A stretch of DNA of 64,000 nt from Candidatus Altiarchaeota archaeon (GCA_043800255.1 JAZDNF010000008.1:1-64000), one strand, 5' to 3'. Counted from the stretch's first letter, positions 34,964-63,749 are shown. Numbers and translations are program-made. Notes: a model not told the origin generated them from the sequence alone.

Positions 34964-35089
34964 GATCATATTATTGAAAGGAAAAATTTATATATGAAAC
35001 GAGGGCAGATGTGAGAAGAATTACGCCGAGGTTTGCGCAAGCCTATCCGGCTTGCTAACCTCTGCGTTCACCTTAACTATTGCCATTAA

Positions 35090-35125
35090 GAGCCACTAAG
35101 CGAACGAAGTGAGCGCATGTGGCTC
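35090..35125 (+). repeat. TAAGCGA..GAGCGCAT hairpin module, copy 1
   Basis: gagccac-TAAGCGA-acGAAgt-GAGCGCAT-gtggctc. Confidence 0.8.
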
Positions 35126-35150
35126 ATTTGATGAACCTTTGGAAAAGGTT

Positions 35151-35307
35151 CGCCGAGGTTGGGATTTGAACCCAAGTGGCCACAAGGACCACGGACTAGC
35201 TGCCACCTTGTCTTGTTTTTTCTTTTTCGTGCACGTTTTTCTTTTTTTCTAAAAAAGAAAAAGGTGCTAGCAGGCCCGCGCGTTAGACCATACTCCGCCA
35301 CCTCGGC
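35151..35307 (-). tRNA. tRNA-Ser(GCT) with 70-nt canonical intron (35198-35267)
   Basis: Acceptor GCCGAGG/CCTCGGC, G73, long variable arm, TTCAAAT loop, BHB CTGC/GCAG with 3-nt bulges. Confidence 0.93.
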
Positions 35308-35442
35308 ATTGTGTTATCGGGTTTTGTTATCCTCTTGGCGAGGTGGTGGGTCTGAGCCCTTGCAGGGCGAAGCTGACCGCCACCTCAGCATTTTATGGCG
35401 ATGTTAACGACCCTCAGGTCGCGACCACCTCGGCATAAAAAA

Positions 35443-35619
35443 TTATTCTAGCTTCTCTGCCTCGTCGATGAGCATTATGGGTATGTCGTCTTCCACCCTG
35501 TATTTGAGTTTGCAGGCGTGGCATGTGAGGTAGTGCTCTTTCTTGTTGTTCACGTACTCGAGGTCGCCTTTGCATTTGGGGCATGCGAGTATGTCCAGTA
35601 GTTTTTTGTCTAATGCCAT
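35443..35619 (-). CDS. trm112: Trm112 family protein
   Basis: Manual translation MALDKKLLDILACPKCKGDL..C..C..Y.VEDDIPIMLIDEA. Confidence 0.9.
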   Translation of the reverse strand: MALDKKLLDILACPKCKGDLEYVNNKKEHYLTCHACKLKYRVEDDIPIMLIDEAEKLE

Positions 35620-35652
35620 TTTTGGTGTAATATTTTAGTTCAAGGGCTTATA

Positions 35653-36621
35653 TTAATCGCTTTTCCACATGCGGGGGTAGACGCCGGTTTCCATGAAAAC
35701 CCTTTTGGATTTGACTATTTCCCCTTTTTTGAGTTCCAGCATCTGTTTCGAGTCGGTAAGGGCTTTTCCGACTGATATGAGCTCCCCTTTGAGGGTGGTT
35801 ATCGCAACATGGTCTCCTGCTTTTATGCCGGATTCCAGCTTCGACACTCCCGGCGCTTTCAGGGTTGCGCCGTGGCATATGGAGTCAACGGCGCCGTCTT
35901 TGACCCAGATTTTTGGCATCCCCTTGAGGGCGTCTTCCACGTGTGTCAGGCGTTCAATAAGTTTGCGGCTGTCTCCCTGCTTGTGGTATTCGAAGGCGTC
36001 TCTCAGATCATGCAGTCTGATGCAGTCGTCCTCGGTTATCCATCCTACCTTAGTCCTCCTGAGTTCGAGCATGTGCGCTCCGACTCCGAGGACTGTGCCG
36101 ATGTCGTGGCAGAGTTTTCTGACGTATGTGCCTGCCTCGCAGTTCACCTTCAGGAGGACTTTTCTCCCGTCTTTTTCGAGGATGACGATTTTGTGGATTG
36201 TCCTGACTCTGAGCTCTCTTTTGACTGCTGACTTCAGGGGCGGGCGCTGGTATATGCCGCCTGTGAATTCTCTTAGCACGCCTTCCAGGTCTTTGTCAGG
36301 CACTTCCTTGTGCAGTTCCAGGATGCCTACGTACTCTTTGTTCAGGTTCAGGAAGGTCAGCACTCTGGTGGCATACTCTAGTCCTATGGGGAGCACTCCA
36401 GTAACGTTCGGGTCCAGTGTTCCTGAGTAGCCTGCCTTTTCGATGCCAAGCATCCTCTTCACCCACACTGTGACCTGGTGGGATGTGGGGCCGCTTGGCT
36501 TGTTGAGGTAGACGAAGCTCTTTTTCAGTCTTTCTTCGACTGTTCTAGAATCTGGCTCGCAGCCGAAATCTGGGTTCGTCTTCTCCTCGTCTTTTACGAG
36601 AATGTCCTTGGCGCCTTCCAT
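35653..36621 (-). CDS. cbf5: H/ACA pseudouridine synthase Cbf5
   Basis: KPSGPTSHQV, GTLDP, EAGTYVRKLCHD, PUA domain. Confidence 0.95.
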   Translation of the reverse strand: MEGAKDILVKDEEKTNPDFGCEPDSRTVEERLKKSFVYLNKPSGPTSHQVTVWVKRMLGIEKAGYSGTLDPNVTGVLPIGLEYATRVLTFLNLNKEYVGILELHKEVPDKDLEGVLREFTGGIYQRPPLKSAVKRELRVRTIHKIVILEKDGRKVLLKVNCEAGTYVRKLCHDIGTVLGVGAHMLELRRTKVGWITEDDCIRLHDLRDAFEYHKQGDSRKLIERLTHVEDALKGMPKIWVKDGAVDSICHGATLKAPGVSKLESGIKAGDHVAITTLKGELISVGKALTDSKQMLELKKGEIVKSKRVFMETGVYPRMWKSD

Positions 36622-36622
36622 T

Positions 36623-36859
36623 TCAGGGGAGGTCGGCTTTCTTCATCGCGTCTAACACTGTTTTACTGTCCGCGCCTTTCTTGATTTTCACTGTCGCGGG
36701 GAGGGGTTCGATGTGTTTGATGTTTACTTTGCCTCTTTTGACGTTCTCCCCTTCCACTATTACGGTGTTCTTGTCTGCGGTGTCTGCTATCACGCAGTAT
36801 TCGCCAGCGTCGTTTCCGCGCAGTTTGACGCAGACTCTTCCAACTTCTATCAAAGCCAT
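36623..36859 (-). CDS. rpl14e: 50S ribosomal protein L14e
   Basis: IEVGRVCVK..G..AG, NIKHIEP. Confidence 0.93.
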   Translation of the reverse strand: MALIEVGRVCVKLRGNDAGEYCVIADTADKNTVIVEGENVKRGKVNIKHIEPLPATVKIKKGADSKTVLDAMKKADLP

Positions 36860-36902
36860 TTTGAGATAAATGATAGGGTGTTCAGCCTTAAAAAGTAAAC
36901 GC

Positions 36903-38315
36903 CTATAGTGTGTCGAGGCAGTCGGGGTCTGCGGGCGGGCACACTGGATTCTGGCCTGGGCAGTTCTGGCATGGCAGGCTATTCCAGTCGACGCAGCAGC
37001 AGGTTTCCCCCTGGAACTCGTAGAAGGCGCTTGCGACGCAGCTTGTCTTGCAATTCTGGGTTATCTGCTGCAGCTTCTGTGAGGCCCAGTCCTTGCACTG
37101 CTGTTGCGTGTTTATCACCGGCGCTCCGAAGACTCCGGTGTTTATCCACTGGTATCCGTTCACGCCCTGGTCATCGCAGTACATCTGGCAGTTAGGATAG
37201 CACAGGCAGTCGCTCTCGCATCCCAGATATATGTCGATGTCCTCGCAGTCGAAATCTGATTCGCACTCCTCTCCTGGCTCCACAACATCGTTGCCGCATT
37301 CGTACTCGTAACAGTAATAGCAGTGGCTGCATGTGTCCCACTGTTTGCAGTATCCGACGTCAGGGTCGTTGCAGTATTTTATGCATTCGGTGTAATTCTT
37401 CAGCACCAGCGCGCCTCCCAATGTTGAGCAGTCTTTGTCCTTGCAGTAGTTGCATGGCGTGCTCTGGTACTGGGAGCATTCTTCACACTCCGCATCGCAG
37501 TTTCCGCCGCAGTTCACATCGTTGTAGAGGCTTCCGCCGCAGGTCACGGAAACTGTCGTGGTAGCCTGTACAGATGTCGTTGGCGTTGATGTGGTAGCTC
37601 CTCCCACGGTTGTCGGCGTCGAGGTCGTTGCTCCGGCAGTTGTTGTTGGTTGTGTCGAAGTTGTTGGGGTCGTGCCCGTCTGGCAGTAGGCTGTGCACTT
37701 GCAGGCTGATTCATCCCAGACGCAGTTCAGCACCGTCTGGCCTCTTGAAGTGCACTGGCTGTTGCAGTGGGCTGTGCAGTCGTCTTTGCCCCAGGCGCAC
37801 TTTTTCGTGCTCGAAACTGGGACTCCCTCATCGTCGGTGCACTGCCCGTTGAGGCATCTTTCAGCGCATGTTTCGACTATCTCGGTCTTTATGCTGCCCA
37901 TGCACTTCGAGTCTGCCGTTCCCGGCTTGCTGCAACGGTATGAGGTTACATCCTGGACTACCTTCTCCTGGTAGCATCTTAGCTGGCCCAGATTCGGGCC
38001 GCCGCAGTCAGCATTTATAGTGCATGTGAACTTTGTGCTCGTGGTAGTCTCAACGCTCGTTGTTGGTTCAGCAGTTGTCGTTGATTCTACAGTGCTGGCG
38101 ACGGTCGTCTCCTCTAAAGTGGTTGTCTTCTCGTCGTTGTCGCATATCGAGTTGTTATCACCGTCCAGGCAGCATTCTTTCCCGACCTGGATGTAGGGCA
38201 CGTTGCAGACAATTTCCGCCTGAGCGGGCGCCTTCTGGCTGGGGGAAGTGCAGCCAGCAGCAAGCATTACAGAGACTAGAAACAGGACTGTGATGATCTT
38301 TTCATTCAGCTTCAT
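36903..38315 (-). CDS. Cys-rich surface lipoprotein with Thr-rich linkers
   Basis: Lipobox LAAGC, CCLD.D.N.ICD, TT tracts, dense Cys. Confidence 0.85.
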   Translation of the reverse strand: MKLNEKIITVLFLVSVMLAAGCTSPSQKAPAQAEIVCNVPYIQVGKECCLDGDNNSICDNDEKTTTLEETTVASTVESTTTAEPTTSVETTTSTKFTCTINADCGGPNLGQLRCYQEKVVQDVTSYRCSKPGTADSKCMGSIKTEIVETCAERCLNGQCTDDEGVPVSSTKKCAWGKDDCTAHCNSQCTSRGQTVLNCVWDESACKCTAYCQTGTTPTTSTQPTTTAGATTSTPTTVGGATTSTPTTSVQATTTVSVTCGGSLYNDVNCGGNCDAECEECSQYQSTPCNYCKDKDCSTLGGALVLKNYTECIKYCNDPDVGYCKQWDTCSHCYYCYEYECGNDVVEPGEECESDFDCEDIDIYLGCESDCLCYPNCQMYCDDQGVNGYQWINTGVFGAPVINTQQQCKDWASQKLQQITQNCKTSCVASAFYEFQGETCCCVDWNSLPCQNCPGQNPVCPPADPDCLDTL

Positions 38316-38362
38316 CCAACTTCCCAGATAATTATCTGATAGAGTCTATAAAAATCCCCAAA

Positions 38363-39067
38363 TCAGTTGTGAACAGTAACCTTGTTCTCGTAAATCTCAT
38401 AAACTGTCTTATCCCCTCTGATTCCCCCCTTGAGAGTGTGATATCTTGTCACGTCGGCTCTGCCGTCGTTTTTCAGCGTGATGTTCGTGACATTGTCTCC
38501 TCGCGGCTCGCCTGCGACCGGCTTCTCGAAATCCTCATACGATACTTTGAATTCCCGCCCGGACAGTTCGTCTTTTGTGAATTTTATCATGTCTGTCGCA
38601 GTGTCCTTCTCGCCGATGCCGTTCCCCTTGACCAGGTAGACAATGGTGTCCTTTGCTTTCGCGAGCTTGAGCCATTCGTCCAGGAAGCCGCCGATGTCTA
38701 CAGTAGTGTGAGTGTGTGCCAAACCTATCAGCTTCTTCTCTTTATTGACAAGGCACACGTACATGCAGCTTGAGGCGAACTCAGACGCCAGGCTTTCGAG
38801 TTCGTTGGTTATGCGCCCGTATCCCTGGATTATGCTGCCTTCTGATGTGGGGCTTCCCTTCGCCTCCTCTAGGAACGCGTCGGTGAGCCTTCCGTCGCCT
38901 GTCCGGTATTTTTCCCTGCGGGCCAGCCTGAACGTCCAAGTCCCGACCGCGTCCTCAGCTAGTTCAGTCCTCGTCTTCCATCGTTCTCCGACCTGGCGGA
39001 TTTGCTCGACCTCGTCATATTCCCTTCTCTCGTGAGGGGGGTGGCCGGCCTCTCTGGTGACGCTCAT
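38363..39067 (-). CDS. Hypothetical protein, possible CheD/CNF1-like deamidase fold
   Basis: FASSCMYVCL..IGLAH resembles the SC..H catalytic spacing. Confidence 0.5.
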   Translation of the reverse strand: MSVTREAGHPPHERREYDEVEQIRQVGERWKTRTELAEDAVGTWTFRLARREKYRTGDGRLTDAFLEEAKGSPTSEGSIIQGYGRITNELESLASEFASSCMYVCLVNKEKKLIGLAHTHTTVDIGGFLDEWLKLAKAKDTIVYLVKGNGIGEKDTATDMIKFTKDELSGREFKVSYEDFEKPVAGEPRGDNVTNITLKNDGRADVTRYHTLKGGIRGDKTVYEIYENKVTVHN

Positions 39068-39102
39068 AGTATATTACAATACGCTGCCGGCAGATTAATA
39101 GC

Positions 39103-39756
39103 TCAGAGGGTTGAGAAATCTTTCCCGTGTTTTTGGAGGAATTTTTTCAGATTTTTTTGGGGGATCTTGTGAGGTTTCCCTATCAGCTTAGCTCCAACGT
39201 AGACTTTCGCCATCTTCTCAACGAGTTCTGCCATCTTCACGGTATGTTCGACGGTGCGACCGCAGACTAGGGCGCCGTGGTTCGCCAGGAGCGTCCCGTT
39301 CCTGTTCCCAAGAGCCTTCACAGCCTTTGCCCCTATTTTTTCGGTGTTGGCTTCTGCGTATTCTGACACGTTGACTTCTCCGCCTAAGAAGATTGCCATC
39401 TCTTCCAGGAGTACGGGTATCTTTTCCCTGGCTGCTGACAGCATCGTGGCGTACGGCGAGTGCGTGTGTATGACACACTTTGCTTTAGGCTTCGCCCTGT
39501 AGACTGCAGCATGCAATCGATACTCTGATGAGGGTTTCCTGCCTTTGCTGACCTGTGTTCCGTCGAATCTTATGCGTACTATGTCTTCTGCAATCAGCTT
39601 TCCATAGTCGTTGAACGTTGGCGTTATGTAGAGTTCCTCCCTGTCAGGGACTCTGACACTCACATTCCCTTCACCGGTCTCAACCAGTCCCCTCTCGTGT
39701 ATCGCCTTAGCAGCCTTGAGAACCTCTCCCCTGAGCTTCTTCTCTTCTGAGTCCAT
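39103..39756 (-). CDS. Class II aldolase/adducin (FucA-like)
   Basis: GNVS, PSSE..H, HTHS, NHG. Confidence 0.9.
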   Translation of the reverse strand: MDSEEKKLRGEVLKAAKAIHERGLVETGEGNVSVRVPDREELYITPTFNDYGKLIAEDIVRIRFDGTQVSKGRKPSSEYRLHAAVYRAKPKAKCVIHTHSPYATMLSAAREKIPVLLEEMAIFLGGEVNVSEYAEANTEKIGAKAVKALGNRNGTLLANHGALVCGRTVEHTVKMAELVEKMAKVYVGAKLIGKPHKIPQKNLKKFLQKHGKDFSTL

Positions 39757-39892
39757 CTCCTCTGGAATATTATTAACCGAATTCTATTAAAGATTATCTA
39801 GGGACAGGAGAGAAGCCAGCTTATACGCTTACAGTGGCTGATTTCCCGGTTAGTTGGTTTTTAATCGGCAGGCCAGAATCTTATAATAGGAC

Positions 39893-40882
39893 ATGGTCGA
39901 GTACGATACTGCGGAGAGGAGCGTCGTCACGGATGTGCCGTCCATACAGTTGGGTTCTACGTTAAAGGACGCTGAGAGTCTCCTTATGAGGGGGGCGAAA
40001 TATTACAGCACGGTAGACTACGTGTACGTTCTCAACAAATCTGGGGTGCTTGTCGGCGTCATGTCCGTGAGGGAGATTCTCGGCGCCGCGGACAAGAGCG
40101 TGAAAGTGGACGATGTTATGGTCAAGAATCCTGTGGTCGCGCACCTTCACACTCACCAGGAGACTCTCGTGTACAGGGCTCTCAAGCATGGCATAAAGTC
40201 GATGCCCATCGTAGACAGGAGCGGAGTGTTCATCGGCGTCGTGCCTTTCAACACCATTCTGCAGATTTTCAACGAGGAGCTTCACGGCGAGATACTCAAG
40301 TTGGGAGGAGTCTACCATAAGGTCGGGAAGGAGTTCGCAACCATAAACTCTAAGACGGCGACGATGATCAGGCACAGGATGCCGTGGCTTGTTGTGGGAG
40401 TCCTTGGCGGTGCTGTCACCGCTACCATCGTCGGCAGCTTTGAGGATGTGTTGAGCAGGCTTATCACCCTCGCAGCGTTTACCCCGGTTCTCGCCTACCT
40501 CAGCGATGCTGTCGGCACACAGTCTGAGACGCTGGCTGTTAGGAGCATAGCATTAGACCCGAAACTTTCTGTCAGAGCCTATTTTGCGAGGGAGCTTTCT
40601 GTCGCGCTTGTGCTGGCGTTAACCTGCGGGATACTTTTGGCCGCGGTGGCTGAAATCGGCTGGGCTGACCCAGTCCTCAGCGTCATAGTCGGCATCTCAA
40701 TGTTCCTGAGCATCATAGCAGCGGTCATGATCTCAACAACGTTGCCTTTCATCCTGAGGAAATTTAACGTAGACCCAGCATACGCTTCAGGCCCCTTCGC
40801 TACCATGATAAGCGACATCGCAACCGTCACCATATACTTCCTCACCGCCACACAACTCCTAACAACCAACGGCCTGCTCTGA
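39893..40882 (+). CDS. mgtE: MgtE magnesium transporter (CBS pair + TM)
   Basis: CBS domains, RMPWL, GTQS, DPA.ASGPF.T.I.D. Confidence 0.9.
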   Translation: MVEYDTAERSVVTDVPSIQLGSTLKDAESLLMRGAKYYSTVDYVYVLNKSGVLVGVMSVREILGAADKSVKVDDVMVKNPVVAHLHTHQETLVYRALKHGIKSMPIVDRSGVFIGVVPFNTILQIFNEELHGEILKLGGVYHKVGKEFATINSKTATMIRHRMPWLVVGVLGGAVTATIVGSFEDVLSRLITLAAFTPVLAYLSDAVGTQSETLAVRSIALDPKLSVRAYFARELSVALVLALTCGILLAAVAEIGWADPVLSVIVGISMFLSIIAAVMISTTLPFILRKFNVDPAYASGPFATMISDIATVTIYFLTATQLLTTNGLL

Positions 40883-41139
40883 AAAGAACTAACACGCAGC
40901 TTCTGAGATGATTTAGATTCCATATAGAATCACCTCAGCTTGGCTATATGAACCTAAAACGAAGAAGTGATTTGTTTTTATTCTCGTTCTAATACATAAC
41001 TGAGGGGCTGATATGGCAACTAAAAACAGGGTATGCGGGATACATACAAGAGTGTAATGGAGCTTGTCAGAGACGCTTTAACAAAACCAACTCCTGAGGA
41101 ATAACATCCTAGATATACACTCCAGCCTCTTGTCCGAAA

Positions 41140-41667
41140 ATGAAGGAGAAAACAAAAAACGTGGTAGTGCATCTTGGGGATGTTGGACCCGATGACTCGG
41201 CTAAAGGTAGAGAGTATACTGAGAGGTTCCCAGACATTATGTTCATTGGAATAGACATTGAGGAGCGTCTTGAAAAATTCGAACTCGACAATTATAGGCA
41301 TCTCACTGCCGATTTTATAGGCGGGCTTAAAACCTTAGAGGACAACTCCATAACATTAATCTCCTCTAATCTGGCTTTAGGCTACTATGATGTGGCAGGT
41401 AATATGATCAAAGCCAAAGAAGCGGCAGACTATACTATGCGAGTAGCTCAATTAGCCCACGATAAACTAAAGAGGGGTGGGAAACTGCTGGTAGTAGTGG
41501 CTGAAGATCAGGCTGATATAATAAAGGAAGCCGTCATTAAAGGATCCTTTCATCCTGAAGATGTCAAAACACGCCCCCTAGAACCAAACGAGTATAAACG
41601 AACACACTGGATAAAGGATTACGTCAAAGATAACATTCCCCTCTGTCAGATAACTGCGACAAAATAA
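41140..41667 (+). CDS. Class I SAM-dependent methyltransferase-like protein
   Basis: GDVGP, FIGID, ADF, LKRGGKL; upstream frames are broken. Confidence 0.55.
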   Translation: MKEKTKNVVVHLGDVGPDDSAKGREYTERFPDIMFIGIDIEERLEKFELDNYRHLTADFIGGLKTLEDNSITLISSNLALGYYDVAGNMIKAKEAADYTMRVAQLAHDKLKRGGKLLVVVAEDQADIIKEAVIKGSFHPEDVKTRPLEPNEYKRTHWIKDYVKDNIPLCQITATK

Positions 41668-41794
41668 AACGTTTTAAAGTTTGGGGCCAGTGACTTATTG
41701 GAGTCTGAAATCTAGCTATTATTGTGAAACAACCGCGTAAGAAGAAGTTAGGTGTAGGATTTTTACCTTCGTTTTTAATACATAAGAGATGGGA

Positions 41795-41811
41795 TGGGCC
41801 TGCGGAGATTT
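41795..41811 (-). repeat. 17-bp duplicate of the tRNA-Ile 3' end
   Basis: TGGGCCTGCGGAGATTT identical to 41966-41982. Confidence 0.9.
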
Positions 41812-41965
41812 CTTAACCGCGGGGGCTCCCGCCCCCTCAGTTTCAAGTTCTTCCTGAACCCCCGAAACGAATTGCGAGGTCTCTCGACCTCGCGAATGCA
41901 TTATCACGCTCAAGGGGACTGAGCGAAGCGAAGTCGCCGCCGCATGTAAACTGGGCGTGACAGTT

Positions 41966-42128
41966 TGGGCCTGCGGAGATTTGAACTCCGGACCTCTCGA
42001 TTTCAGAAGCGACGCGTAATTCGCGTCCTGCACCTCCCGTCTTTTTTCTTTGGGGGTGAAGCACCTTTCTTTTCTAAAGAAAGGGGCTCTATCAGTCGAG
42101 TGCTCTAACCAGTCTGAGCCACAGGCCC
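41966..42128 (-). tRNA. tRNA-Ile(GAT) with 88-nt canonical intron (42002-42089)
   Basis: GGGCCTG/CAGGCCC, A73, CTCGA-CTGATA|A-TCGAG, BHB with one U-U mismatch. Confidence 0.92.
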
Positions 42129-42199
42129 TTGTAAGCAAAAGGTGAGTTAATCTTAGTGATTTAATACTAAAATAAGTTTTTCCTAAAAGAAAAAGGCTT

Positions 42200-42292
42200 G
42201 TCGAGTGCTCAGCGCGAGAAGCTCTGCTTCTCGGCTCGCCAAAATCGCAGTGGCGATTTTGCGCGTAACCAGTCTGAGCCACAGGCCCTTGT
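42200..42292 (-). pseudogene. Duplicate tRNA-Ile 5' half interrupted by a 55-nt twin-hairpin insertion
   Basis: GTCGAGTGCTC (42200-42210) and TAACCAGTCTGAGCCACAGGCCCTTGT (42266-42292) match the tRNA; no anticodon. Confidence 0.8.
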
Positions 42293-42310
42293 TTATTCTT
42301 TAGTTATTAT

Positions 42311-42395
42311 GGGCCATTAAGCGACCGAAAGGGAGCGCATATGGCTCAACCGAGACATCCGTCTCGGTGAGCACGAAGACGAATGTCTTCGTTGC
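42311..42395 (+). repeat. TAAGCGA..GAGCGCAT module copy 2 plus CGAGAC/CGAAGAC twin hairpin
   Basis: Matches 35090-35125, 63199-63231 and 63625-63672. Confidence 0.8.
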
Positions 42396-42482
42396 TCCTT
42401 TGGCCAGCCTTTAAAAAGGCTGTGAGCCACAGGCCCGTGAAAATTTGAGGTTATTTTTAGTGTTTTTAAGATAAAAAATAGT

Positions 42483-56505: not shown

Positions 56506-56595
56506 GGAACACACAAATCTAGGATATACTCTAGACTGTCCGCAATATAGATTAAAAAAAAAGGATAATGGGCTTTTTTGCAGCCCCGCTCATCT

Positions 56596-56790: not shown

Positions 56791-56956
56791 TGTAGTATCA
56801 CCTCCATGTAATGCTTATTTTCCGCCCGAATTGGACGTTAAATCCTAGTTGGATTCTGTTAGAAACAGAAAGAACATGCGGGAACATAAGTCAACAATAG
56901 GTAAGTGTTTTTCTACCTATTAGGGTTTTATGCTTAAAAATCAAACTATCCTGTCC

Positions 56957-57481
56957 TTACAGGTCGTCCAGGGCATCTCCCAGCAATCCCCGCACCCGTT
57001 TCTTCTCATTCAGGAAGTATTGCCTCACAAGGGCCAGGTGGTATATGGGCTTGGCCATTATCTGAGCGGGGGTGGAATCAGCCAGCAGTTTCATCACCGC
57101 CTCCTGGTCCCACGAGTCCATACCCCTCTCAACTCTTATAGTCTCCGCCTTGCTGTCCAGTCTTCCGCCTTCGGATTCCCACAGCTGCTTTAACGCTGAG
57201 AAAACTTTGGAGTTGAGGTCGTCTTCCAGCTTTTTCATAGAGAGGCCGAAAATCACAGCATCGATTTCTTGTTTGCCTAGCATGTCCCCTAACTGCGGCC
57301 CGAAGGTTGCTGCACCCTCAATCAGCGAGTCTTCTGATAGCTGGGTTCGTGGTTTCCGGCCTAAAGATTTTGGCATAAGCTCTCTCAGCTTCTGGATAGG
57401 GGAGCCCTGCTTTTCCCTGTCGTCTTCTTTTTTCTTAGGCTGCCGGCGCCTGTCCTTTGGGAATTCTATCAGCTCTCCCAT
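56957..57481 (-). CDS. Hypothetical protein
   Basis: 174-aa ORF, charged N-terminus. Confidence 0.6.
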   Translation of the reverse strand: MGELIEFPKDRRRQPKKKEDDREKQGSPIQKLRELMPKSLGRKPRTQLSEDSLIEGAATFGPQLGDMLGKQEIDAVIFGLSMKKLEDDLNSKVFSALKQLWESEGGRLDSKAETIRVERGMDSWDQEAVMKLLADSTPAQIMAKPIYHLALVRQYFLNEKKRVRGLLGDALDDL

Positions 57482-57516
57482 GGTTTATTACAATGAACGC
57501 CGGGATAATATATACT

Positions 57517-58665
57517 ATGGACCGGGTTGTCTTGCGCAGGGCATCTGATGGACTCGCGCAAGAGGTCAGGCAGAACCTGGAAGCCATTGAGAGGCTGACT
57601 CCCAAGGAGGCTGGCAAATTGAAGCCTGCTGTCACGGAGGAGCTGAAAGTTGACTTGCACCATCACTTCGTGCCTTCTACGAATCCTGCCAAGCGGGCTA
57701 AACAGGTTAGGGCGTTCTGGAAGGCTGTGCAGGCGAGCGATTTGGATGCTGTCGCCGTAACAACGCACAGTGACATCGAAAGAGGCGACGTCAATCCTGA
57801 GTCCATCTATCGTGAGCTTAGGGAGGCAATGCCTGAGAAGCTCAGGAAAGGCAAGTTCAAGCTTTTGGCTGGGCTTGAAGTCCAGTGCAGACCGAATAAA
57901 ACGGAGATAGGTCTGATATCCCCTGAGCCGGACCTCCTCTATAAGGATCCCTTCTGGTATTCGATGCCCTCTGCAGATGATGTTGGGAGGAAAATAAGAG
58001 ATGACAGCAGGCTGCTTGGTTATTTGCCGCATCCTTTCTCCGGTTCTGGGGGAGCTGCTCATGGATCACACATGGGCGCGGACGAGGCTAGGAGGCTGGT
58101 GGGAGAATACGGCCTCGGCGTTGAATTCACTGGCATGTACAGGGACGGTAAGCTGCTGACGCAGCAGCCTATTTTGAGGCAGCTTTTAGGCCTTTTTGAG
58201 ATGCTGCCTCAGAAGAATAAGGTTCTGACGAAGATTGCGGCCGTGTCCGAGGGCTTCAGGCGGGCGGATGAGGAGGTGCATAGGAGCGGGCTGGCGGGTG
58301 AAGCCAGGTTCGTAACAGTCGGAGGCGACTATCATGATGCGAAAGACCTCGGCAAATCTTACATACTCGTTCCTGTGAAGAAAAAGTCCGATAAGCCGCT
58401 CAGCCAACAGTATGACATTCTGGAGAGCGGGGGCGGCATGATCCTGTTGGAGGCGAGCAAAAGCGCAGTCTCGGATGCTGCTGGCAGGCCTGCCTCAGAG
58501 GAGGAGATCATCGAAAGCATCAAAACGACAAAAGACACTGCGGAACCCCACCTGCAGGGAGAGCAGGGGAAAGACTTCAAGCTGCTCCTGAACCTGACAG
58601 CCGAATTCGCAAGAGAGACGAAAGCCAACCTCAGAGAAAAACGCCTAGTGAAAAAACAAGAATAG
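57517..58665 (+). CDS. PHP-domain metal-dependent phosphoesterase-like protein
   Basis: DLHHH, AVTTHSD, GLEV, PHPF, GGDYH. Confidence 0.75.
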   Translation: MDRVVLRRASDGLAQEVRQNLEAIERLTPKEAGKLKPAVTEELKVDLHHHFVPSTNPAKRAKQVRAFWKAVQASDLDAVAVTTHSDIERGDVNPESIYRELREAMPEKLRKGKFKLLAGLEVQCRPNKTEIGLISPEPDLLYKDPFWYSMPSADDVGRKIRDDSRLLGYLPHPFSGSGGAAHGSHMGADEARRLVGEYGLGVEFTGMYRDGKLLTQQPILRQLLGLFEMLPQKNKVLTKIAAVSEGFRRADEEVHRSGLAGEARFVTVGGDYHDAKDLGKSYILVPVKKKSDKPLSQQYDILESGGGMILLEASKSAVSDAAGRPASEEEIIESIKTTKDTAEPHLQGEQGKDFKLLLNLTAEFARETKANLREKRLVKKQE

Positions 58666-58846
58666 ACTCTGTCAAATCCGAATCTTGCCGAAGGTGGGAA
58701 CCTAAACATTGGTACAAGAGGAGTTAAAAACGTTAGACTGTGAGGTAACAAAAAAGACGGCATAAAATAGATTTCAGACTGATTCTACTGAAGATATTAT
58801 AGAACAATGATATAAAAAGCGTTATGTTCTTATACATAAACTGAGG

Positions 58847-59221
58847 ATGAAAGCGTTGCATAGTTTTGTTCATCAGAGTAGGGAGGGTAAGATAACTTCT
58901 TTGTCAATGTATTTGGCTGATTCTGGGCAGGCGTTGAACATGTCAGTTAGTGAGAAGATCAACGACACATCGGAGATAATCCGGGTGAAATTCAACTTGA
59001 ACGAGATCGCAGCAATGTCTAAACTAAACACTTGGTCTACCTACCACTCCTTTGAGAAGGAGGGTAAGACGTCAGAGACTCGGATAAACTGGAACACCCC
59101 CTTCTTCAGCGTTGAGAAGGAGGGTAAAAAGATCGCGATAAAATTCACCGACGCTGAAATTTATGGGTTTCAGATGACGCTGGAGACCGCATTCCAAGAG
59201 CTGATCAGAAGAGGAAAATAG
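58847..59221 (+). CDS. Hypothetical protein
   Basis: 124-aa ORF with internal EKEGK repeat. Confidence 0.6.
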   Translation: MKALHSFVHQSREGKITSLSMYLADSGQALNMSVSEKINDTSEIIRVKFNLNEIAAMSKLNTWSTYHSFEKEGKTSETRINWNTPFFSVEKEGKKIAIKFTDAEIYGFQMTLETAFQELIRRGK

Positions 59222-59228
59222 ATTATTT

Positions 59229-60758
59229 CTAGTTGTTTTTAGATTCGCTGATACCTTCAAAATCGATATACCCTCGCGTGGGATCCACATTGATCAATCT
59301 AACACGAACTTTCTGTCCGACAGCCATTCTTTCCCCTCCATGCATGACCCTGCCTTCTACTGGTGGTGAGATAATCCGTACATAAGTTCCCTTTTCAGAA
59401 GCCCCGGTGACAATCCCATCAAATGAGTCCCCTAATCTATCACCCAATAATACCGCTGCCGCTGCCTTTCGCATGAAACGTTCAACCTTCTGAGCAGCTT
59501 TGTCGCGATCAGTACACCACAATGAAAGTTCAATTAACTCTTTTTGAGTATACGGACTTGATTCTTTTGCCAGAACTGATTTAAAAAGCCGTTGAAGAAT
59601 AACATCCACATAACGTCGGTTAGGGGCTGTAGCATGAGTGTAGTCCATAACGGCAAGGCCAAAATGGCCATATGAAGGCTTACCCGGCTCAAGCATGACA
59701 TATTCGCCTGCCCCCAACAACTTTACGATCGTTAAAGACAGATCAGGGAAATGTTCGGAATCAACCTCTTTTTGCCTAATGAGAAATTGTGAAAGCGCCT
59801 TTGAGTCAGGTTCAGAAGGCAAAGTCTCACCGTGGGCGACAGCGACATCCATTATACCCCTCCAGTTTCGAGGAGTGCGGACGACCCTCTGGATTACCGG
59901 AATTCCTGCTTTTTCTAAAAAATTCATCATCGTCACATTGACGGCTATCATAAGGTTCTCAATCAAGTATCGTGCTCGATTTTTCCTTTGGATTACTAAA
60001 CCTTTTACCCTCTCGTTCTCCACAACCGGTTTAGGTTCGATTGTGTCCAATTCAAGAGCCCCTTTGTCCATACGAAATTTTCTTAAACGTTGCGAGGCCT
60101 CATCCTGCAGGGCAAGTTGTTCTTCTAGCCCGGGAATTTCCCGTACGAGATGGGGAGCAGGGCCCTTCCCCTCAAGCCAGTCACCGATTTCTTCATAAAT
60201 AAGCTTTGCTTTATTGCGCACAATCGCACGGTATATGTCTCCTGAGCGGATGCTCCCGTCTAAAAGGACTGCAAACTCGATGACAACTGCCAAGCGGTCT
60301 TGGCCAGCTCGCAGAGAGGAGAGATCAGTAGACAACCTATTTGGAAGCATTGGGAAAATCTCTATCCCAGTATAAACCGATGTGCCATTTTGAACGGCAT
60401 GCTGGTCAGTTTGGGAGTTTTTTGGGGCAAACAAATCAACATCAGCAATAGCAACCTTAACCAGTATCTCTTGGTTGGAACCATGCTCACAGTATTCTAG
60501 TTGATCAAGGTCCAGAGAATCCTCATTATCGATTGAAGACCATAATAATGAACGAAGGTCTCTGGCATCATTTTGACCGCCTTTCAAAAGCTGTTTTACA
60601 TTGATAGCGTTGACTTCATTTATCACAAGCTTTGGGAATTGGGATTGGAAACCATATTTATTCATCGCCTTTCTGGCTATGGCCTTAAGGTCTAGGTTAC
60701 GGTAATTAGCGATATTTCCTATCCTCTCTCCCCCACTTTTTCGCTTAGGACGTTCCAT
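59229..60758 (-). CDS. RNB-family (RNase II/R-like) exoribonuclease
   Basis: SIDN..S.DLDQ, VAIADV, HFGLA..YTH.TAPNRRYVD, S1 domain. Confidence 0.9.
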   Translation of the reverse strand: MERPKRKSGGERIGNIANYRNLDLKAIARKAMNKYGFQSQFPKLVINEVNAINVKQLLKGGQNDARDLRSLLWSSIDNEDSLDLDQLEYCEHGSNQEILVKVAIADVDLFAPKNSQTDQHAVQNGTSVYTGIEIFPMLPNRLSTDLSSLRAGQDRLAVVIEFAVLLDGSIRSGDIYRAIVRNKAKLIYEEIGDWLEGKGPAPHLVREIPGLEEQLALQDEASQRLRKFRMDKGALELDTIEPKPVVENERVKGLVIQRKNRARYLIENLMIAVNVTMMNFLEKAGIPVIQRVVRTPRNWRGIMDVAVAHGETLPSEPDSKALSQFLIRQKEVDSEHFPDLSLTIVKLLGAGEYVMLEPGKPSYGHFGLAVMDYTHATAPNRRYVDVILQRLFKSVLAKESSPYTQKELIELSLWCTDRDKAAQKVERFMRKAAAAVLLGDRLGDSFDGIVTGASEKGTYVRIISPPVEGRVMHGGERMAVGQKVRVRLINVDPTRGYIDFEGISESKNN

Positions 60759-62887
60759 CTCTCTTTTTCTTCTTCGTTAAACGAGCTTTTTACCTGCTTT
60801 AATGCCTGCTGGAAGTGTTTCATGGTGACTTTCCTTGAAGTCGGCTTGTCTTTGCTTTGGCCTATTGACTCGCGTATGGCGTTCATCCCAGCTTCCCTAC
60901 ATACTGCGGAGATGTCTGCTCCGTTATAGTTTTCAGTCGCGTTCACCATTTCATCTAGTTTTATGTCTGAGTCAAGATTCATCTTTTTCATGTGCACTTT
61001 AAAAATCTTTTCGCGGCTTATCTTGTCTGGGAAGGGGACGTAGATAATCTTGTCCAATCTTCCGGGGCGCATCAACGCTTCATCCAAAAGATCCGGCCTG
61101 TTTGTAGAGCCTATTATCATGACGTCCTTAAGCTCTGATACTCCATCTATTTCGGTTAATATTTGAGCGACGACTTTTTCGTTCACGTCGCTTCCGAAGC
61201 TTTCACCTCTTTTCGGGATTAGGGCGTCCAGTTCATCGAAGAATATGATTGCTGGAGCAACTTGTCTTGCCCTGCTGAATACCTTCCGTACTCCTCGCTC
61301 AGACTCTCCCACGTACTTGTTCAATAGTTCCGGGCCTTTTATTGATATGAAGTTTACTCCGGATTCTTTTGCAATGGCTTTAGCGAGCATGGTTTTTCCG
61401 CAACCTGGCGGCCCGTATATCAGCACACCTTTAGGCGGCGCTACTCCAGTCTCCTTGAACATGCTGCTGTATTTGATAGGCCATTCAATGCTTTCCTTGA
61501 GTTGTCCTTTGACTTTTTCAAGTCCGCCTATATCGTCCCAGGTTACGTTGGGTATTTCAACTGAGACTTCACGCATGGCTGATGGTTCCACCCTGCTCAT
61601 GCCCTCATGGAAGTCTTCTCCAGTAATCTTTATTTTGTTTAGTATGTCCGTTGAAAGCTTCATATCTTTCGCCTTCTTTATATCCGGCATCAGTTTCCTC
61701 AACGCTTTCATGGCTGCTTCCTTGCAGAGTGCTTCAAGGTCCGCTCCAGTGTAGCCGTAAGTTATGTCTGCAAGGTGGTCAAGATTCACGTCTTTAGCTA
61801 GAGGCATGCCTCTTGTATGAATCTGCAAAACTTCCTTCCTACCGTTCCGGTCTGGAACCCCAATCTCAATCTCTCTGTCGAACCTACCCGGCCTTCTAAG
61901 GGCAGGGTCTATTGAGTCCGGCCTGTTGGTTGCTGCAATCACTACAACTTCTCCTCTCGACTGGAGACCGTCCATAAGCGTTAAGAGCTGGCTTACGATT
62001 CTTTTTTCAACTTCGCCATGGACTTCCTCACGGCTGGGTGCTATAGCGTCAATCTCGTCAATGAATATTATCGCGGGAGTGTGTTCTTGCGCATTCTTGA
62101 ATACTTCCCGCAAGTTTTCCTCACTTTGACCGTAGTATTTGCTCATAATTTCCGGGCCGTTCAGTGATATAAATTGAGCGTCGGTTTCGCTTGCAACCGC
62201 TTTTGCAAGAAGGGTTTTTCCGGTTCCGGGAGGCCCGTATAACATGACTCCTTTCGGCGGTTTTATTCCTAGCTTTTGGAAGACTTCAGGATGTTTTATC
62301 GGAGTTTCAATCATTTCTCTTATCGCGTCTATCTCATCTTTGAGCCCGCCGATGTCCTCATACCTTATTCCAGGAGACAGTTCAGTAGTCTTCACCGGAT
62401 TTTTGGATATCCTGATTTCAGTGTCGGGGGTTACAATGACTATCCCTTTTGGCTTGATGCGGGTAACCATCAACGGGAGTTGAACTCCCATGACATCTAC
62501 AACGACAACATGTCCTTGCATGAAGGGCATATTCATTAACTTCTCCTGCAGGTATATTGGAAGATCATCTCCAAACTCTATGGGCTGAAAGGGACTGAAT
62601 TGTATCTCACTCGCCTTACTGTAGTCGACTTTTTCTACTTTGACCTCTTCGTCAATGCTTGCGCCAGCATTGTGCCTTATTATCCCATCAAGCCGTATAC
62701 TACCCCGCCCCTCATCTTCCATCTGCCCGGGCCAGGCTCTTGCAGAAGCTTTCTTTTTACCTTCTATGACAAGTATATCCCCCGGTGAAAGCTTCATCTT
62801 TCTGAATACTACAGGGTCTATCCTTGCAATACCCCCACCCACTTCGTTTACCCTAGCCTCCTTGACTTTTAAAATCGCGTCTTTCAT
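60719..62887 (-). CDS. cdc48: CDC48/VAT AAA+ ATPase
   Basis: Two AAA modules GPPGTGKT and [14 protein letters not shown]. Confidence 0.95.
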
Positions 62888-63198
62888 TCTACCCTCTCTC
62901 TGGATCTCCATCCACAATGTCTTTCACATAGACGGTCATACCATCAATAAAGGAAATGCAAACTACTTGGGAAGGATATTAGAATACAACAATAAATCCA
63001 CTGTTTTGGCTTAGTCAAGGAAGATAGAACGCAACGCGGCTTAGAGTAGGTAAAAGTAGTGAACATCACAACACAATAAGCAAAGTGAGTGGGCTAAGTG
63101 CTCTGACACATCAACTGGAGGATAAGGTTCGAAGTTACAGTGTTAGAGTTCAAGTCCCTAAGGGCTCTGAAAAAACACGAATCAAAAGGATGCTCAGT

Positions 63199-63231
63199 GC
63201 GGCTAAGCGAGCGTTAGCGAGCGCATGCCGC
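63199..63231 (+). repeat. TAAGCGA..GAGCGCAT hairpin module, copy 3
   Basis: gcggc-TAAGCGA-gcGTTAgc-GAGCGCAT-gccgc. Confidence 0.8.
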
Positions 63232-63259
63232 TCCCTGGCGTAAACGGACAGTGTCGGTT

Positions 63260-63444
63260 TGCCGAAGGCGGGACTCGAACCCGCGACCTCCAGATAACTC
63301 AGCGTTATCGTGAAATCTTCCCTAGCCTTTGGCTACGGTGCCCGGCCCCAAAATTTTTTCTTTGGGGGTGAAGCACCTTTCTTTTCATAAAAGAAAGGGG
63401 CTCGCTTATGAGTCTGGCACTCTGCGCTACTGAGCTACTTCGGC
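63260..63444 (-). tRNA. Elongator tRNA-Met(CAT) with 111-nt canonical intron (63296-63406)
   Basis: GCCGAAG/CTTCGGC, A73, CCAGA-CTCATA|A-TCTGG, BHB CTCA/TGAG. Confidence 0.88.
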
Positions 63445-63528
63445 GTAACTGGAAATCCAGTTAGCAGATTGTACTGTCTTCGGCTCCGGCCTCGACAGTA
63501 CTGAATAATATTATCTTGACGTATTATA

Positions 63529-63749
63529 TTTCTTTTCCATCAACGCTTTTCTTTCCTAAAGAAAAGGGTTGCTGGATTCAATATTATGGGCGTTAGAGTA
63601 TATTAATTTTCTTTTTCGCCAACGCAAACGAGACTTTGTCTCGTTGCGCACGAAGACGCTAGTCTTCGTTGCGTTTTTCTTTTCCCTAAGGAGCGAAGCT
63701 CCTTGGGCGCAGGGAACGAAGTTCCCTCGCGTCTAAAAGAAAAAGGTTG
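63529..63749 (+). repeat. Two triplex-type modules, the second with two nested twin-hairpin insertions
   Basis: Pyrimidine tract + pyrimidine/purine hairpin at 63529-63571 and 63607-63749. Confidence 0.8.

Follow-up and report, generated by a model that had tools for sequence, protein, structure and literature searches.

Mosaic hairpin and triplex-type modules occupy the introns and flanks of stable-RNA genes in a Candidatus Altiarchaeota archaeon

The three tRNA genes in the 64,000-nucleotide stretch of DNA analysed here (the window), which comes from an uncultured groundwater archaeon, are interrupted and bordered by members of a lineage-wide family of four kinds of module, namely hp1 hairpins with invariant internal loops, short hp2 hairpins, pyrimidine/purine triplex-type modules (T and its conserved intron variant Tv) and twin hairpins. 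The modules lie in discarded parts of transcripts (tRNA introns, 5' leaders or upstream spacers, 3' trailers and the flanks of 5S rRNA, SRP RNA and C/D sRNA), and their targets are stable-RNA genes in general. By analogy, we read them as an archaeal counterpart of REP/BIME-type repeats. The explanation we prefer, a non-autonomous, REP/BIME-like mosaic repeat family living in those discarded parts, has in our judgement about an even chance of being correct.

All three tRNA genes are located on the minus strand and carry a long intron at the canonical site, in agreement with the first-pass annotation. These are tRNA-Ser(GCU) (35151-35307; intron of ~70 nt, ~35198-35267), tRNA-Ile(GAU) (41966-42128; 88 nt, ~42004-42091) and an elongator-type tRNA-Met(CAU) (63260-63444; ~111 nt, ~63296-63406). 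ARAGORN at default settings detected no tRNA in the window and reported the three genes only once introns were permitted. tRNA-Ser scored 38.9 bits in Rfam with a 72-nt insert (ARAGORN i(42,70)) and tRNA-Met 52.6 bits with a 113-nt insert (ARAGORN i(39,111)). tRNA-Ile was not detected by the Rfam search and was misnamed by intron-permitting ARAGORN; scripted removal of 88 nt after position 37 leaves a 75-nt tRNA-Ile(GAT), and contigs of homologues with short introns join 42004 to 42090.

The same modules recur at the three loci, as had been proposed from a triplex-type motif, a hairpin and twin hairpins. The hp1 motif TAAGCGA..GAGCGCAT has three exact matches in the window, at 35097, 42318 and 63204, all on the plus strand, and none in 100 shuffles of the window. 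Triplex-type modules are present in all three introns and in the tRNA-Met 5' flank. In the tRNA-Ser intron, T (35216-35264, plus strand) consists of a pyrimidine tract, an 8-nt CGNNNNCG turn, a second pyrimidine tract, a loop and a purine tract, forming a 12-bp pyrimidine/purine hairpin with a third tract that mirrors it at 12 of 12 positions. On the 3' side of the gene, hp1 (35090-35125), a T-rich linker and hp2 (35133-35151) form a plus-strand unit (35090-35151; model R1, 59.3 bits) in which hp2 directly adjoins the complement of the discriminator of tRNA-Ser. Beyond it lies an inverted-repeat hairpin (35024-35066) with outer arms that copy the tRNA-Ser 3' end; the 10-nt 3'-end repeat has its second copy in the left arm. 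The 5' flank (35310-35437) holds two extra copies of the tRNA start (35377-35392 and 35422-35437, each comprising the first 13 nt of the tRNA and 3 upstream nt), with an inverted-repeat hairpin (35337-35389) between copies.

At tRNA-Ile, a Tv module (42040-42089, plus strand) lies beside the 5' splice site; it matches 63354-63403, as well as copies in three further tRNA introns of this genome, at 96% identity. The 3' flank (41795-41965, plus strand) starts with a 17-nt copy of the tRNA 3' end (41795-41811), followed by a 154-nt block with hairpins at 41871-41897, 41914-41946 (hp1-like) and 41948-41965 (hp2, abutting the tRNA); its sub-modules are multi-copy in 27 of the 49 genomes of the order. 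In the 5' flank (42133-42292), a promoter-like AT-rich stretch is accompanied by a pyrimidine/purine hairpin (42176-42197), and twin hairpins (42211-42265) split a copy of the tRNA 5' half (42200-42210 and 42266-42292). This flank is followed by an hp1 unit (42293-42436, plus strand) made up of an AT-rich end, hp1 (42311-42347), twin hairpins (42348-42397), a linker, hp2 (42405-42422) and a closing 14-nt copy of the tRNA 5' end (42423-42436), the third in the locus.

tRNA-Met carries a Tv module in its intron (63346-63403, plus strand), with orthologous T/Tv modules in other genomes, and a 3' unit (63197-63260, plus strand; model R1, 58.2 bits) of hp1 (63197-63233), linker and hp2 (63242-63260), which again abuts the complement of the discriminator. 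Two hairpins (63446-63463 and 63471-63501) between an AT-rich promoter-like stretch and the tRNA 5' end probably belong to the tRNA-Met 5' leader; the pair recurs 3' of tRNA-Arg(TCT) on contig 13. Further upstream are a simple T module (63529-63568, plus strand) and a composite one (63607-63746, plus strand) with twin hairpins nested in its turn, or spacer (63625-63673), and in its loop (63686-63732). Elsewhere in the genome, two tRNA introns and four flanks carry copies that are 90-97% identical to the composite. Together with the split tRNA-Ile copy, the composite confirms the nesting of modules within each other.

The idea that modules lie between duplicated tRNA ends holds for tRNA-Ser (5' end at 35295, 35377 and 35422; 3' end at 35024 and 35151) and tRNA-Ile (5' end at 42106, 42266 and 42414; 3' end at 41795 and 41966), where the duplications are 10-27 nt long, but not for tRNA-Met, of which the window contains no end copy. 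Elsewhere, tRNA-Arg(TCT) has a 112-nt composite bounded by a 15-nt duplication. On contig 5, a 21-nt tRNA-Met 3' fragment adjoins another tRNA. The genome is a 17-contig metagenome assembly, and tRNA loci and repeats are difficult to assemble, so that repeat misassembly or chance low-complexity matches might be suspected. However, independent metagenome contigs from three runs reproduce the duplications: the tRNA-Ile 3' duplication (41787-42073) is covered, an X3 contig spans 42090-42289, including two 27-nt copies of the tRNA-Ile 5' end, with one difference, and the tRNA-Ser 5' copies (35150-36464) are covered as well. Thus the duplications cannot be put down to this assembly alone. Moreover, the motifs occur in dozens of other genomes, whereas reversed-pattern controls give 0 or 1 match, and neither the window shuffles noted above nor any of 500 shuffles in the covariation analysis below reproduces the signal. 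We consider an artefact to be largely refuted and extremely improbable.

Filled and empty sites both exist in near-identical strains, as seen in metagenome contigs. In one contig, which is 99.5% identical over 42090-42289, position 42289 is followed directly by 42438, and the 148-nt hp1 unit (42290-42437), which in the window is bounded by a 14-17 nt direct repeat (target duplication), is absent. Another skips the 51-nt twin hairpins (42346-42396), and both gaps fall exactly at module borders. A related-strain contig of ~95% identity lacks or replaces 34995-35149. The gaps could represent deletions between direct repeats instead of insertions, and a joint between 42105 and 42266 may derive from a paralogous locus at 96.7 kb of the contig.

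Genome-wide, BLAST with the three loci gave 49 matches to other loci, of which 48 lie no more than 400 nt from one of 35 stable-RNA genes (1.87% of the genome); counting ARAGORN tRNAs alone, 39 do. Likewise, 31 of 33 perfect pyrimidine/purine hairpins are in or beside stable-RNA genes, 15 of them in tRNA introns. The predicted enrichment at tRNA loci is thus real, but the family is not confined to them: 5S rRNA, SRP RNA and C/D sRNA genes identified with Rfam (the last weakly supported) and one protein-gene start are also flanked by modules. Orientation follows the host gene. T reads hairpin and then purine tract along the host sense strand in 26 of 28 cases, and an antisense tRNA T-arm comes after 14 of 47 hp1 copies, a sense T-arm after none of the 47. 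The earlier statement that modules always read on the plus strand is correct within the window because all three tRNAs lie on the minus strand; across the genome, orientation tracks the host gene.

The hp1 stem is paired in 98.1% of cells compared with 79.7% in shuffles, 8 of its 12 pairs are altered on both sides, and its covariation score of 0.536 (0.183 in shuffles) was reached in none of the 500 shuffles. As judged from its sequence, T is a hairpin with a mirror-image third tract, which is how an intrastrand triple helix is built. The third tract is matched better by a mirror copy of the arm than by a direct copy in 23 modules of this genome (direct better in 3, ties in 4) and in 17 of relatives (direct better in 1, ties in 10), or 40 against 4 when pooled. 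Selection would act on single-strand folds, whose strand we infer, such that hp1 stems are kept by compensatory changes and T keeps its hairpin together with a third tract mirroring the neighbouring arm.

Such conservation bears on a second reading, which we regard as possible though clearly less probable than the preferred one, that the modules serve primarily as functional cis-elements in the expression of stable-RNA genes. T/Tv would pause, terminate or insulate transcription, form an R-loop, or offer proteins a binding handle in introns and flanks, and hp1-hp2 would be a 3'-end cassette stopping convergent transcription or guiding processing; spread and duplications would be secondary, arising from recombination and structure-caused instability. 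The orientation fixed relative to the host gene and the invariant hp1 internal-loop nucleotides within covarying stems are consistent with this. So is the tRNA-Met intron, in which T/Tv occupies the same position with three-way covariation in 10 of 11 genomes of the order, from three families. Across the phylum, 29 of 61 genomes, among them members of a second order, have an identical or almost identical 27-nt Tv core, and Tv always lies 1-3 nt past position 37, in introns of at least nine isoacceptors. In addition, T begins 1-7 nt past the 3' end of seven stable-RNA genes, the expected place of a T-rich terminator, and on the reading strand of hp1 a T-run often comes after the stem. Bacterial intrastrand-triplex repeats have also been linked to local genomic variability (PMC4666352).

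The distribution of hp1 speaks against a primarily functional element. Of the 61 genomes in the phylum, 30 have hp1 and 31 lack it, three of the latter being 91-97% complete; its copy number per genome runs from 0 to 32. The hp1-hp2 trailer of tRNA-Met is found in only 2 of 11 orthologues, and one orthologue is without the intron triplex. Whole cassettes differ between near-identical strains, the RNase P RNA gene has no clear module beside it, and T-runs of 5-6 in the intron sense strand would be an odd design for an expression helper. One relative (G033) contains identical hp1 copies and BIME-like tandem arrays, most of the arrays being without a tRNA within 300 nt (6 of 17 loci have one). 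Such arrays and the variable copy number among relatives support the REP/BIME-like character suggested by the first-pass annotation. Composite modules at unrelated loci of one genome are 90-97% identical, modules recur at stable-RNA genes across the order, and some hp1 sites, such as the one upstream of tRNA-Cys in the genome under study (G000) and in G021, appear orthologous between families. Colonisation is too simple a description of the triplex module: its fixed tRNA-Met intron site, covariation and near-invariant Tv core indicate long vertical retention under selection.

No transposase or integrase had been seen in the window, and no cognate transposase was found in the genome. A search for a HUH/RAYT-like or GIY-YIG nuclease flanked by modules had been suggested; G000 (93% complete) has no match to Y1/HUH, TnpB, RT, Cas1, rve, IS110 or GIY-YIG, and its only tyrosine recombinase and only DDE transposase are not linked to modules, the latter sharing no repeat with them. 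Six Y1-transposase loci in relatives carry no hp1, and Y1 genes there do not follow hp1 copy number. A RAYT/HUH partner is not supported. By eye, the inserts have no terminal inverted repeats, which together with the variable duplication length makes a poor fit to a classical transposase.

Alternatively, the duplicated ends and enclosed DNA might be scars of repeated site-specific integration and decay, the agent being a virus or plasmid with an integrase that attaches at stable-RNA gene ends and is unbinned here. MAG binning often loses extrachromosomal elements. The 10-27 nt direct repeats of tRNA ends flank inserts as att sites would, the tRNA-Met fragment on contig 5 fits as well, and integration at archaeal tRNA genes, with tRNA fragments left behind, is documented (PMC3293823; PMC4090602). 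Yet the same cassettes occur at many tRNAs, 5S rRNA, SRP RNA and sRNA with repeats that match each local gene, so the insert carries no fixed att site. The inserts measure just 30-160 nt, both 5' and 3' ends are used, modules also occur within introns, none was found among 2.9 million viral contigs, and the genome has a single tyrosine recombinase. We consider this origin improbable.

With REP/BIME, the modules share short GC-rich imperfect hairpins that are multi-copy, extragenic and without coding capacity, mosaics and tandem arrays with other motifs, and a copy number that varies among relatives. They differ in being archaeal, in having no RAYT (Y1/HUH) partner found, in their tie to stable-RNA genes and presence inside tRNA introns with locked orientation, and in their 10-17 nt target duplications. 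Like MITEs, including archaeal ones, they are small, non-coding, multi-copy and nested, with filled and empty sites and target duplication, whereas no related autonomous IS was found, and terminal inverted repeats and a constant duplication length are missing. Casposons are Cas1-driven and make 14-15 bp duplications, often at tRNA 3' ends; the ~14-17 nt duplications at tRNA gene ends are similar, but the genome has no Cas1, the inserts of 30-160 nt lack terminal inverted repeats, and duplications range from 10 to 36 nt. RNA triple helices of the ENE/MALAT1 type adjoin an RNase P-cleaved tRNA-like structure. T read antisense to the host is likewise a U-rich tract, small stem, U-rich tract and A-rich tract, and in the seven 3' flanks 1-7 nt separate its end from a tRNA-shaped sequence. 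However, antisense transcription would be needed, a convergent gene is missing at two of the three tRNAs of the window, and intron copies would be left unexplained. The enterobacterial PIT/BoxC motifs (Holder et al. 2015, PMC4666352) resemble T in their three tracts on one strand with short loops, inverted and mirror symmetry, conservation in multiple copies, locally variable genome context and lack of an assigned function. The bacterial motifs are G/C-rich while T is T/A-rich with one or two C/G positions, and T lies in tRNA introns and stable-RNA flanks, is oriented with transcription and covaries three-way between orthologues; the word 'tRNA' is absent from the main text of that paper. Finally, near-identical introns in different isoacceptors of one genome, with a suspected DNA-level mechanism, come from 2010 work as summarised in PMC4090602. 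Near-identical intron sequence is shared across isoacceptors here too, but only as a sub-module, with phylum-wide rather than recent conservation, and the modules are present at leaders, trailers and non-tRNA genes as well.

The observations comprise the anatomy of the modules, their enrichment, the orientation rule, the covariation, their distribution and the indels between strains; among these, the 5S rRNA, SRP RNA and C/D sRNA flanks, the orientation rule, the mirror third tract, hp1 covariation and strain-level cassette gaps are new. For the preferred mosaic-repeat explanation, the insertion mechanism we infer is that cassettes would be gained and lost at the DNA level, each insertion typically duplicating 10-17 nt of target and in occasional cases as many as 36 nt. 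Since the duplication would begin exactly at the mature end of the RNA gene or no more than 3 nt from it, the gene would survive in one intact copy with a short end fragment next to it. Earlier cassettes would in turn receive later ones, and similar modules may recombine into larger partial gene duplications. The modules would persist because EndA intron excision and end trimming strip them from the mature RNA; the genome has both EndA and RNase P RNA, which makes such removal plausible. For T/Tv, our guess is that a co-transcriptional triplex or R-loop would pause, terminate or insulate transcription. Conservation of the Tv core, the tRNA-Met intron site and some hp1 sites is deeper than expected for selfish DNA. 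The intron T/Tv copy is old and fixed and was probably co-opted, and the strict orientation rule could reflect function, not tolerance.

The genome that holds the window (G000) is archaeal, spans 1.75 Mb in 17 contigs with ~50% G+C and is 93% complete, the window being the initial 64 kb of contig 11; the sequencing runs holding part of the window are three DNA groundwater metagenomes from one study. No tRNA was called in window 1-64000 by default ARAGORN. Rfam located a tRNA-Met at 63260-63444(-) with an insert of 113 nt and, at a relaxed threshold, a tRNA-Ser at 35151-35307(-) with an insert of 72 nt. ARAGORN with introns allowed added a further gene at 41966-42128(-) with an intron of 88 nt, which was missed by Rfam even at E≤1 (41900-42200 scanned). 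When the 88 nt are cut out after position 37, a clean 75-nt tRNA-Ile(GAT) is left. The intron thus occupies the canonical 37/38 position in all three genes, by Rfam alignment for tRNA-Ser and tRNA-Met and by the 88-nt removal for tRNA-Ile. Introns are present in 28 of the 34 ARAGORN calls of the genome and range from 23 to 216 nt, the two longest being doubtful. At the tRNA-Met junctions, as judged by eye, the anticodon loop could form a 4-bp helix with the 3' part of the intron, placed between two 3-nt bulges and accompanied by an outer 3-bp helix. The splicing endonuclease EndA (PF01974, 109.7 bits, a 179-aa ORF on contig 8) and RNase P RNA were both found in the genome. Default ARAGORN found none of the three tRNAs and Rfam missed one of them, and tRNAs are probably under-reported in the annotations of the phylum.

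The three tRNA genes are surrounded by housekeeping genes (Cbf5, CDC48, an RNB exoribonuclease, MgtE and iPGM), as identified from 10 scanned ORFs. Two of the 10 have no Pfam family, namely 36903-38315(-) (470 aa) and 41140-41667(+) (175 aa), the latter converging on the module block 3' of tRNA-Ile. The gene for the RNB-domain (RNase II/R-type) exoribonuclease, a protein uncommon in archaea, lies at 59229-60758(-), directly downstream of CDC48 and ~2.5 kb from tRNA-Met. A second CAU-anticodon tRNA is present on contig 11, the contig of the window, at 96624-96908 (L067); because both of its acceptor halves share 90% identity with tRNA-Ile, it may be tRNA-Ile2.

Each of the three introns carries a perfect pyrimidine/purine hairpin of 9-12 bp, and two further copies of the three-tract module built on such a hairpin (T; Tv for its conserved tRNA-intron variant) are present in the 5' flank of tRNA-Met, one of them with twin hairpins, i.e. 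paired small hairpins, nested in its turn and loop. The TAAGCGA-type hairpin (hp1) matches the window three times, always on the + strand, and was never recovered in 100 shuffles. Both the existence of the modules and their nesting, as described in the first-pass annotation, are therefore upheld. Its proposal that they target tRNA loci holds in part. Of the 49 BLAST matches of the three loci to other loci of the genome, 48 are no more than 400 nt away from one of 35 listed stable-RNA genes. These genes make up 1.87% of the genome, and three of them were recognised only by following module matches. With ARAGORN tRNAs alone the count is 39/49, and the enrichment at tRNAs stands, but modules also flank SRP RNA (Rfam, 132 bits), 5S rRNA (78 bits) and C/D sRNA (32 bits, below threshold). 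The perfect pyrimidine/purine hairpins of the genome (n=33) are distributed similarly, with 15 in tRNA introns, 13 in tRNA flanks, 3 beside C/D sRNA, 1 at a protein gene of contig 16 and 1 at no assigned feature.

The protein gene of contig 16 also accounts for the single BLAST outlier. Here a T module (L106, 37767-37949, gene on the - strand) is located between two diverged copies of the first ~22 codons, and no other module copy was seen at a protein gene; by eye, the gene start is a candidate S-adenosylhomocysteine hydrolase-like one. No clear module was seen in the flanks of RNase P RNA, and Rfam holds no family for any module. The dense short repeats of contig 15 (~27000-112500, outside the window), spaced every 0.7-1 kb, were considered as modules and rejected; they are junctions of tandem paralogous protein-gene cassettes, 278 of 280 self-matches are internal to the region and there is no relation to the tRNA modules.

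The third tract of T is located beside the hairpin, spaced by an 8-nt CGNNNNCG mini-hairpin or by ~58 nt where twin hairpins nest. It is a mirror image of the adjacent arm and not a direct repeat: the mirror match is better in 23 cases and the direct match in 3, with 4 ties, in G000, and the corresponding values in other genomes (85 loci) are 17, 1 and 10. Many copies mirror-match perfectly (12/12 or 13/13) despite arm sequences that differ between copies. Two Watson-Crick complementary tracts and a mirror third on one strand with short loops correspond, at the level of sequence, to an intrastrand (PIT-like) triplex motif. In 26 of the 28 unambiguous cases, read along the sense strand of the host, the hairpin comes before the second purine tract; one exception is part of an insert that lies between 15-nt duplicates of the tRNA-Arg(TCT) 3' end. 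Replication strand was rejected as the cause of this orientation, which on contig 8 reverses along with the host gene over less than 4 kb. A wobble test on the arms was uninformative, all 34 selected modules having perfect arms. Folding of the sense strand would yield a purine-motif triplex, feasible in DNA and poor in RNA, and folding of the antisense strand the classical U.A-U / T.A-T motif.

Tv is located 1-3 nt past position 37 in the introns of at least 9 isoacceptors, and its copies in the tRNA-Ile, -Met, -Gln, -Glu and -Val introns of G000 are 92-96% identical. The 27-nt core of Tv (≤3 mismatches) is present in 29 of the 61 genomes sampled from the phylum, and in none with a reversed-pattern control; four of the eight genomes of family f9, which is ranked in the same class and not the same order, contain it. 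A comparison of tRNA-Met orthologues across 11 genomes in three families shows one common intron site, which carries T or Tv in 10; the G of the purine arm is placed differently from genus to genus, moving in all three tracts together. In one tRNA-Met orthologue (L080, contig 88 of genome G042, family f5) the intron is ~290 nt long and includes Tv and a second T with nested twin hairpins. In these comparisons the intron triplex module behaves as an old, constrained part of the gene.

The hp1 hairpin consists of three helices and is backed by 40 copies from 18 genomes. In the alignment 98.1% of the cells are paired as against 79.7% in shuffles, both sides change in 8 of 12 pairs and the covariation score of 0.536 (0.183 in shuffles) was reached by 0/500 shuffles; slid controls were paired at 50% or less. 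The central 3 bp and the loops do not vary, in part because they belong to the pattern by which the copies were identified, and the internal loop may resemble a GNRA-tetraloop receptor. G.U pairs are found 18 times on the TAAGCGA-reading strand vs 3 times on its complement. This bias, only a hint because the copies are related, may favour the strand antisense to the host gene, the same as the U.A-U polarity of T. A K-turn (no GA after a 3-nt bulge) and a BHB (no 4-bp helix between two 3-nt bulges) were rejected by eye as readings of hp1, and so was an independent gene with its own promoter, upstream AT-rich boxes being at inconsistent distance.

Downstream of hp1 come a linker, of which there are three types, and then hp2, a small and variable hairpin. 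The complement of a tRNA 3' end, discriminator included, directly adjoins hp2 in 14 of 47 copies, and in none is a sense tRNA next. The same arrangement follows SRP RNA and 5S rRNA as well. Twin hairpins nest at a fixed point just past the 3' conserved block of hp1 (three copies). Several twin hairpins (42348-42397, 63625-63673, locus L105) share two short stem cores that differ by one base, and other twin hairpins have unrelated stems. A MALAT1-like mode of 3'-end formation for convergent mRNAs does not hold generally and was dismissed, a convergent ORF being present only at tRNA-Ile. An hp1 unit of the tRNA-Ile type is also located upstream of the CAU-anticodon tRNA at 96624-96908, where the flanking repeat matches the sequence of that locus and not tRNA-Ile.

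The alignment-built model recovers hp1 in 30 of the 61 genomes, and these 30 all belong to the same order as the window. Copy number ranges from 0 to 32 per genome, with 8 in G000 and none in some genomes that are 91-97% complete, and the hp1-hp2 trailer of tRNA-Met is present in 2 of the 11 orthologues. The relative G033 contains a short form of hp1 in tandem arrays of 114-132-nt composite units, all in one orientation, with a tRNA within 300 nt at only 6 of 17 loci.

Variation is visible at the level of strains also. One metagenome contig has a single difference over 42090-42289 and then joins 42438, without a 148-nt unit consisting of an AT-rich end, hp1, twin hairpins and hp2; in the window this unit has a 14-17-nt repeat of the tRNA-Ile 5' end on both sides. 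A second contig is without only the 51-nt twin hairpins. Filled and empty sites, which the first-pass annotation had proposed to compare, thus exist in near-identical strains. A ~95%-identical contig with tRNA-Ser and Cbf5 skips 34995-35149, a stretch that may be absent or replaced, and the same samples hold tRNA-Ile homologues with introns of 17-22 nt. A joint 42105->42266 may derive from the paralogous tRNA at 96.7 kb, the upstream flank of which is 95% identical to 42268-42438.

The modules were further said to lie between duplicated tRNA ends. Direct copies of the gene's own ends, 10-27 nt long, bracket modules at tRNA-Ser and tRNA-Ile and none does so at tRNA-Met. Independently assembled metagenome contigs reproduce the Ser and Ile duplications, and an artefact fits poorly and is extremely improbable. 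Duplications have their starting point either at the mature 3' end or 3 nt before the mature 5' end, and they include 10-20 nt of the gene (36 nt in one relative); the RNA gene survives because one copy remains attached to it. The upstream flanks of tRNA-Arg-GCG, -Phe and -Ile follow one layout, in which a copy of the promoter region and of the first 14-38 nt of the tRNA is followed by the module, the promoter and the tRNA. An exact 21-nt copy of the tRNA-Met 3' end (window 63259-63279) is present on contig 5 (9145-9165) in the 3' flank of another tRNA, and tRNA fragments therefore seem to travel with modules. In their patchy occurrence, variable number, strain polymorphism, nesting and flanking duplications, hp1 units and twin hairpins behave like cassettes that are mobile or, at the least, dispensable. 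Their junctions at mature RNA ends, together with the orientation rule, suggest a possible link to transcription or RNA-DNA hybrids.

A HUH/RAYT-like or GIY-YIG nuclease flanked by the modules, for which the first-pass annotation had proposed to look, did not emerge. Profile search of G000 gave no Y1/HUH (PF01797), TnpB, RT, Cas1 (PF01867), rve, IS110 or GIY-YIG. One tyrosine recombinase (contig 7) and one DDE transposase (contig 9) were identified, neither in the window, in agreement with the earlier statement that no transposase or integrase is encoded there; no repeat was found at the DDE locus and none is common with the modules. Y1 genes occur in 21 of the 61 genomes and do not track hp1 copy number: the relatives G041 and G042 contain 15-16 hp1 copies and no Y1, and G032 has no hp1 but contains 17 Y1 genes. 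At six Y1 loci in relatives no hp1 match exceeded 12 bits, and at the one with ORFs listed (L128) the Y1 ORF adjoins a 396-aa ORF, as in IS200/IS605. The disruption of a Caldiarchaeum tRNA by an integrating element has been described (PMC3293823), but integration scars fit poorly as an explanation here and are very unlikely; two conserved module cores gave 0 matches in viral contigs.

The resemblance to REP/BIME elements is partial. Similar are hp1 as a short imperfect palindrome with many extragenic copies (8 in G000, up to 32 in relatives) and the mosaic clusters of hp1, linker and hp2 with or without twin hairpins, including the tandem arrays of G033. Unlike classical BIMEs, however, the array units are all in one orientation, and no cognate RAYT (Y1/HUH) flanked by the repeats was found here. 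MITEs differ in that no terminal inverted repeats could be seen by eye in the 148-nt unit, the target duplications (10-36 nt) are not of fixed length and no related autonomous IS is present, the single DDE transposase of G000 sharing no repeat with the modules. A casposon would differ by its Cas1-family integrase (PF01867), which G000 does not encode. The canonical 37/38 position and the presence of the splicing endonuclease are as in archaeal BHB tRNA introns, and the near-identity (92-96%) of Tv in non-orthologous tRNA introns is reminiscent of the unexplained intron transposition in Thermoproteales, as summarised in PMC4090602. Together with REP/BIME repeats and the Caldiarchaeum case, this transposition and the G/C-rich intrastrand-triplex PIT/BoxC motifs of enterobacteria (PMC4666352) are the nearest counterparts in the literature. 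The part of the literature that was searched yielded no description of these modules or of a triplex motif in archaeal tRNA introns.

Two layers can be distinguished, dispensable cassettes (hp1 units and twin hairpins) on the one hand and the old, constrained intron triplex module on the other. On this basis we give an even chance to a REP/BIME-like non-autonomous mosaic family which survives in the discarded parts of stable-RNA transcripts and part of which is fixed and probably co-opted. The main rival holds that the modules are primarily functional cis-elements and treats the spread and the duplications as side effects; we consider it possible though rather unlikely. The insertion mechanism, the folding strand and any function are what we infer.

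Three-way covariation, fixed polarity relative to transcription and phylum-wide conservation in tRNA introns and at stable-RNA ends raise the further possibility, which we regard as doubtful, that T/Tv is a genuine selected triple helix marking a previously unknown structural device of archaeal stable-RNA genes. It could act as a co-transcriptional DNA or RNA-DNA triplex or R-loop by which RNA polymerase would be paused, terminated or insulated, or alternatively as a structured RNA made antisense to the host gene, in the polarity that gives the U.A-U triplex. Cassette insertions, and the duplications starting at mature RNA ends, would then have their origin in the same structures. Triple-strand motifs backed by three-way covariation in natural sequences are rare, and T/Tv, if true, would add to the small number of comparative cases for triplex formation in vivo.

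How archaeal tRNA genes gain introns and become disrupted is the question that these modules address; the arrival of tRNA introns is stated as unknown in reviews and in a 2026 Asgard preprint. The long tRNA introns of this lineage can be decomposed into a small set of recognisable modules, some of which are fixed lineage-wide, and others are caught in gain and loss between near-identical strains with duplications from mature RNA ends. Defined cassettes, their junctions, a copy range of 0-32, which suits phylogenetic profiling, and no classical transposase make the question of intron arrival testable.
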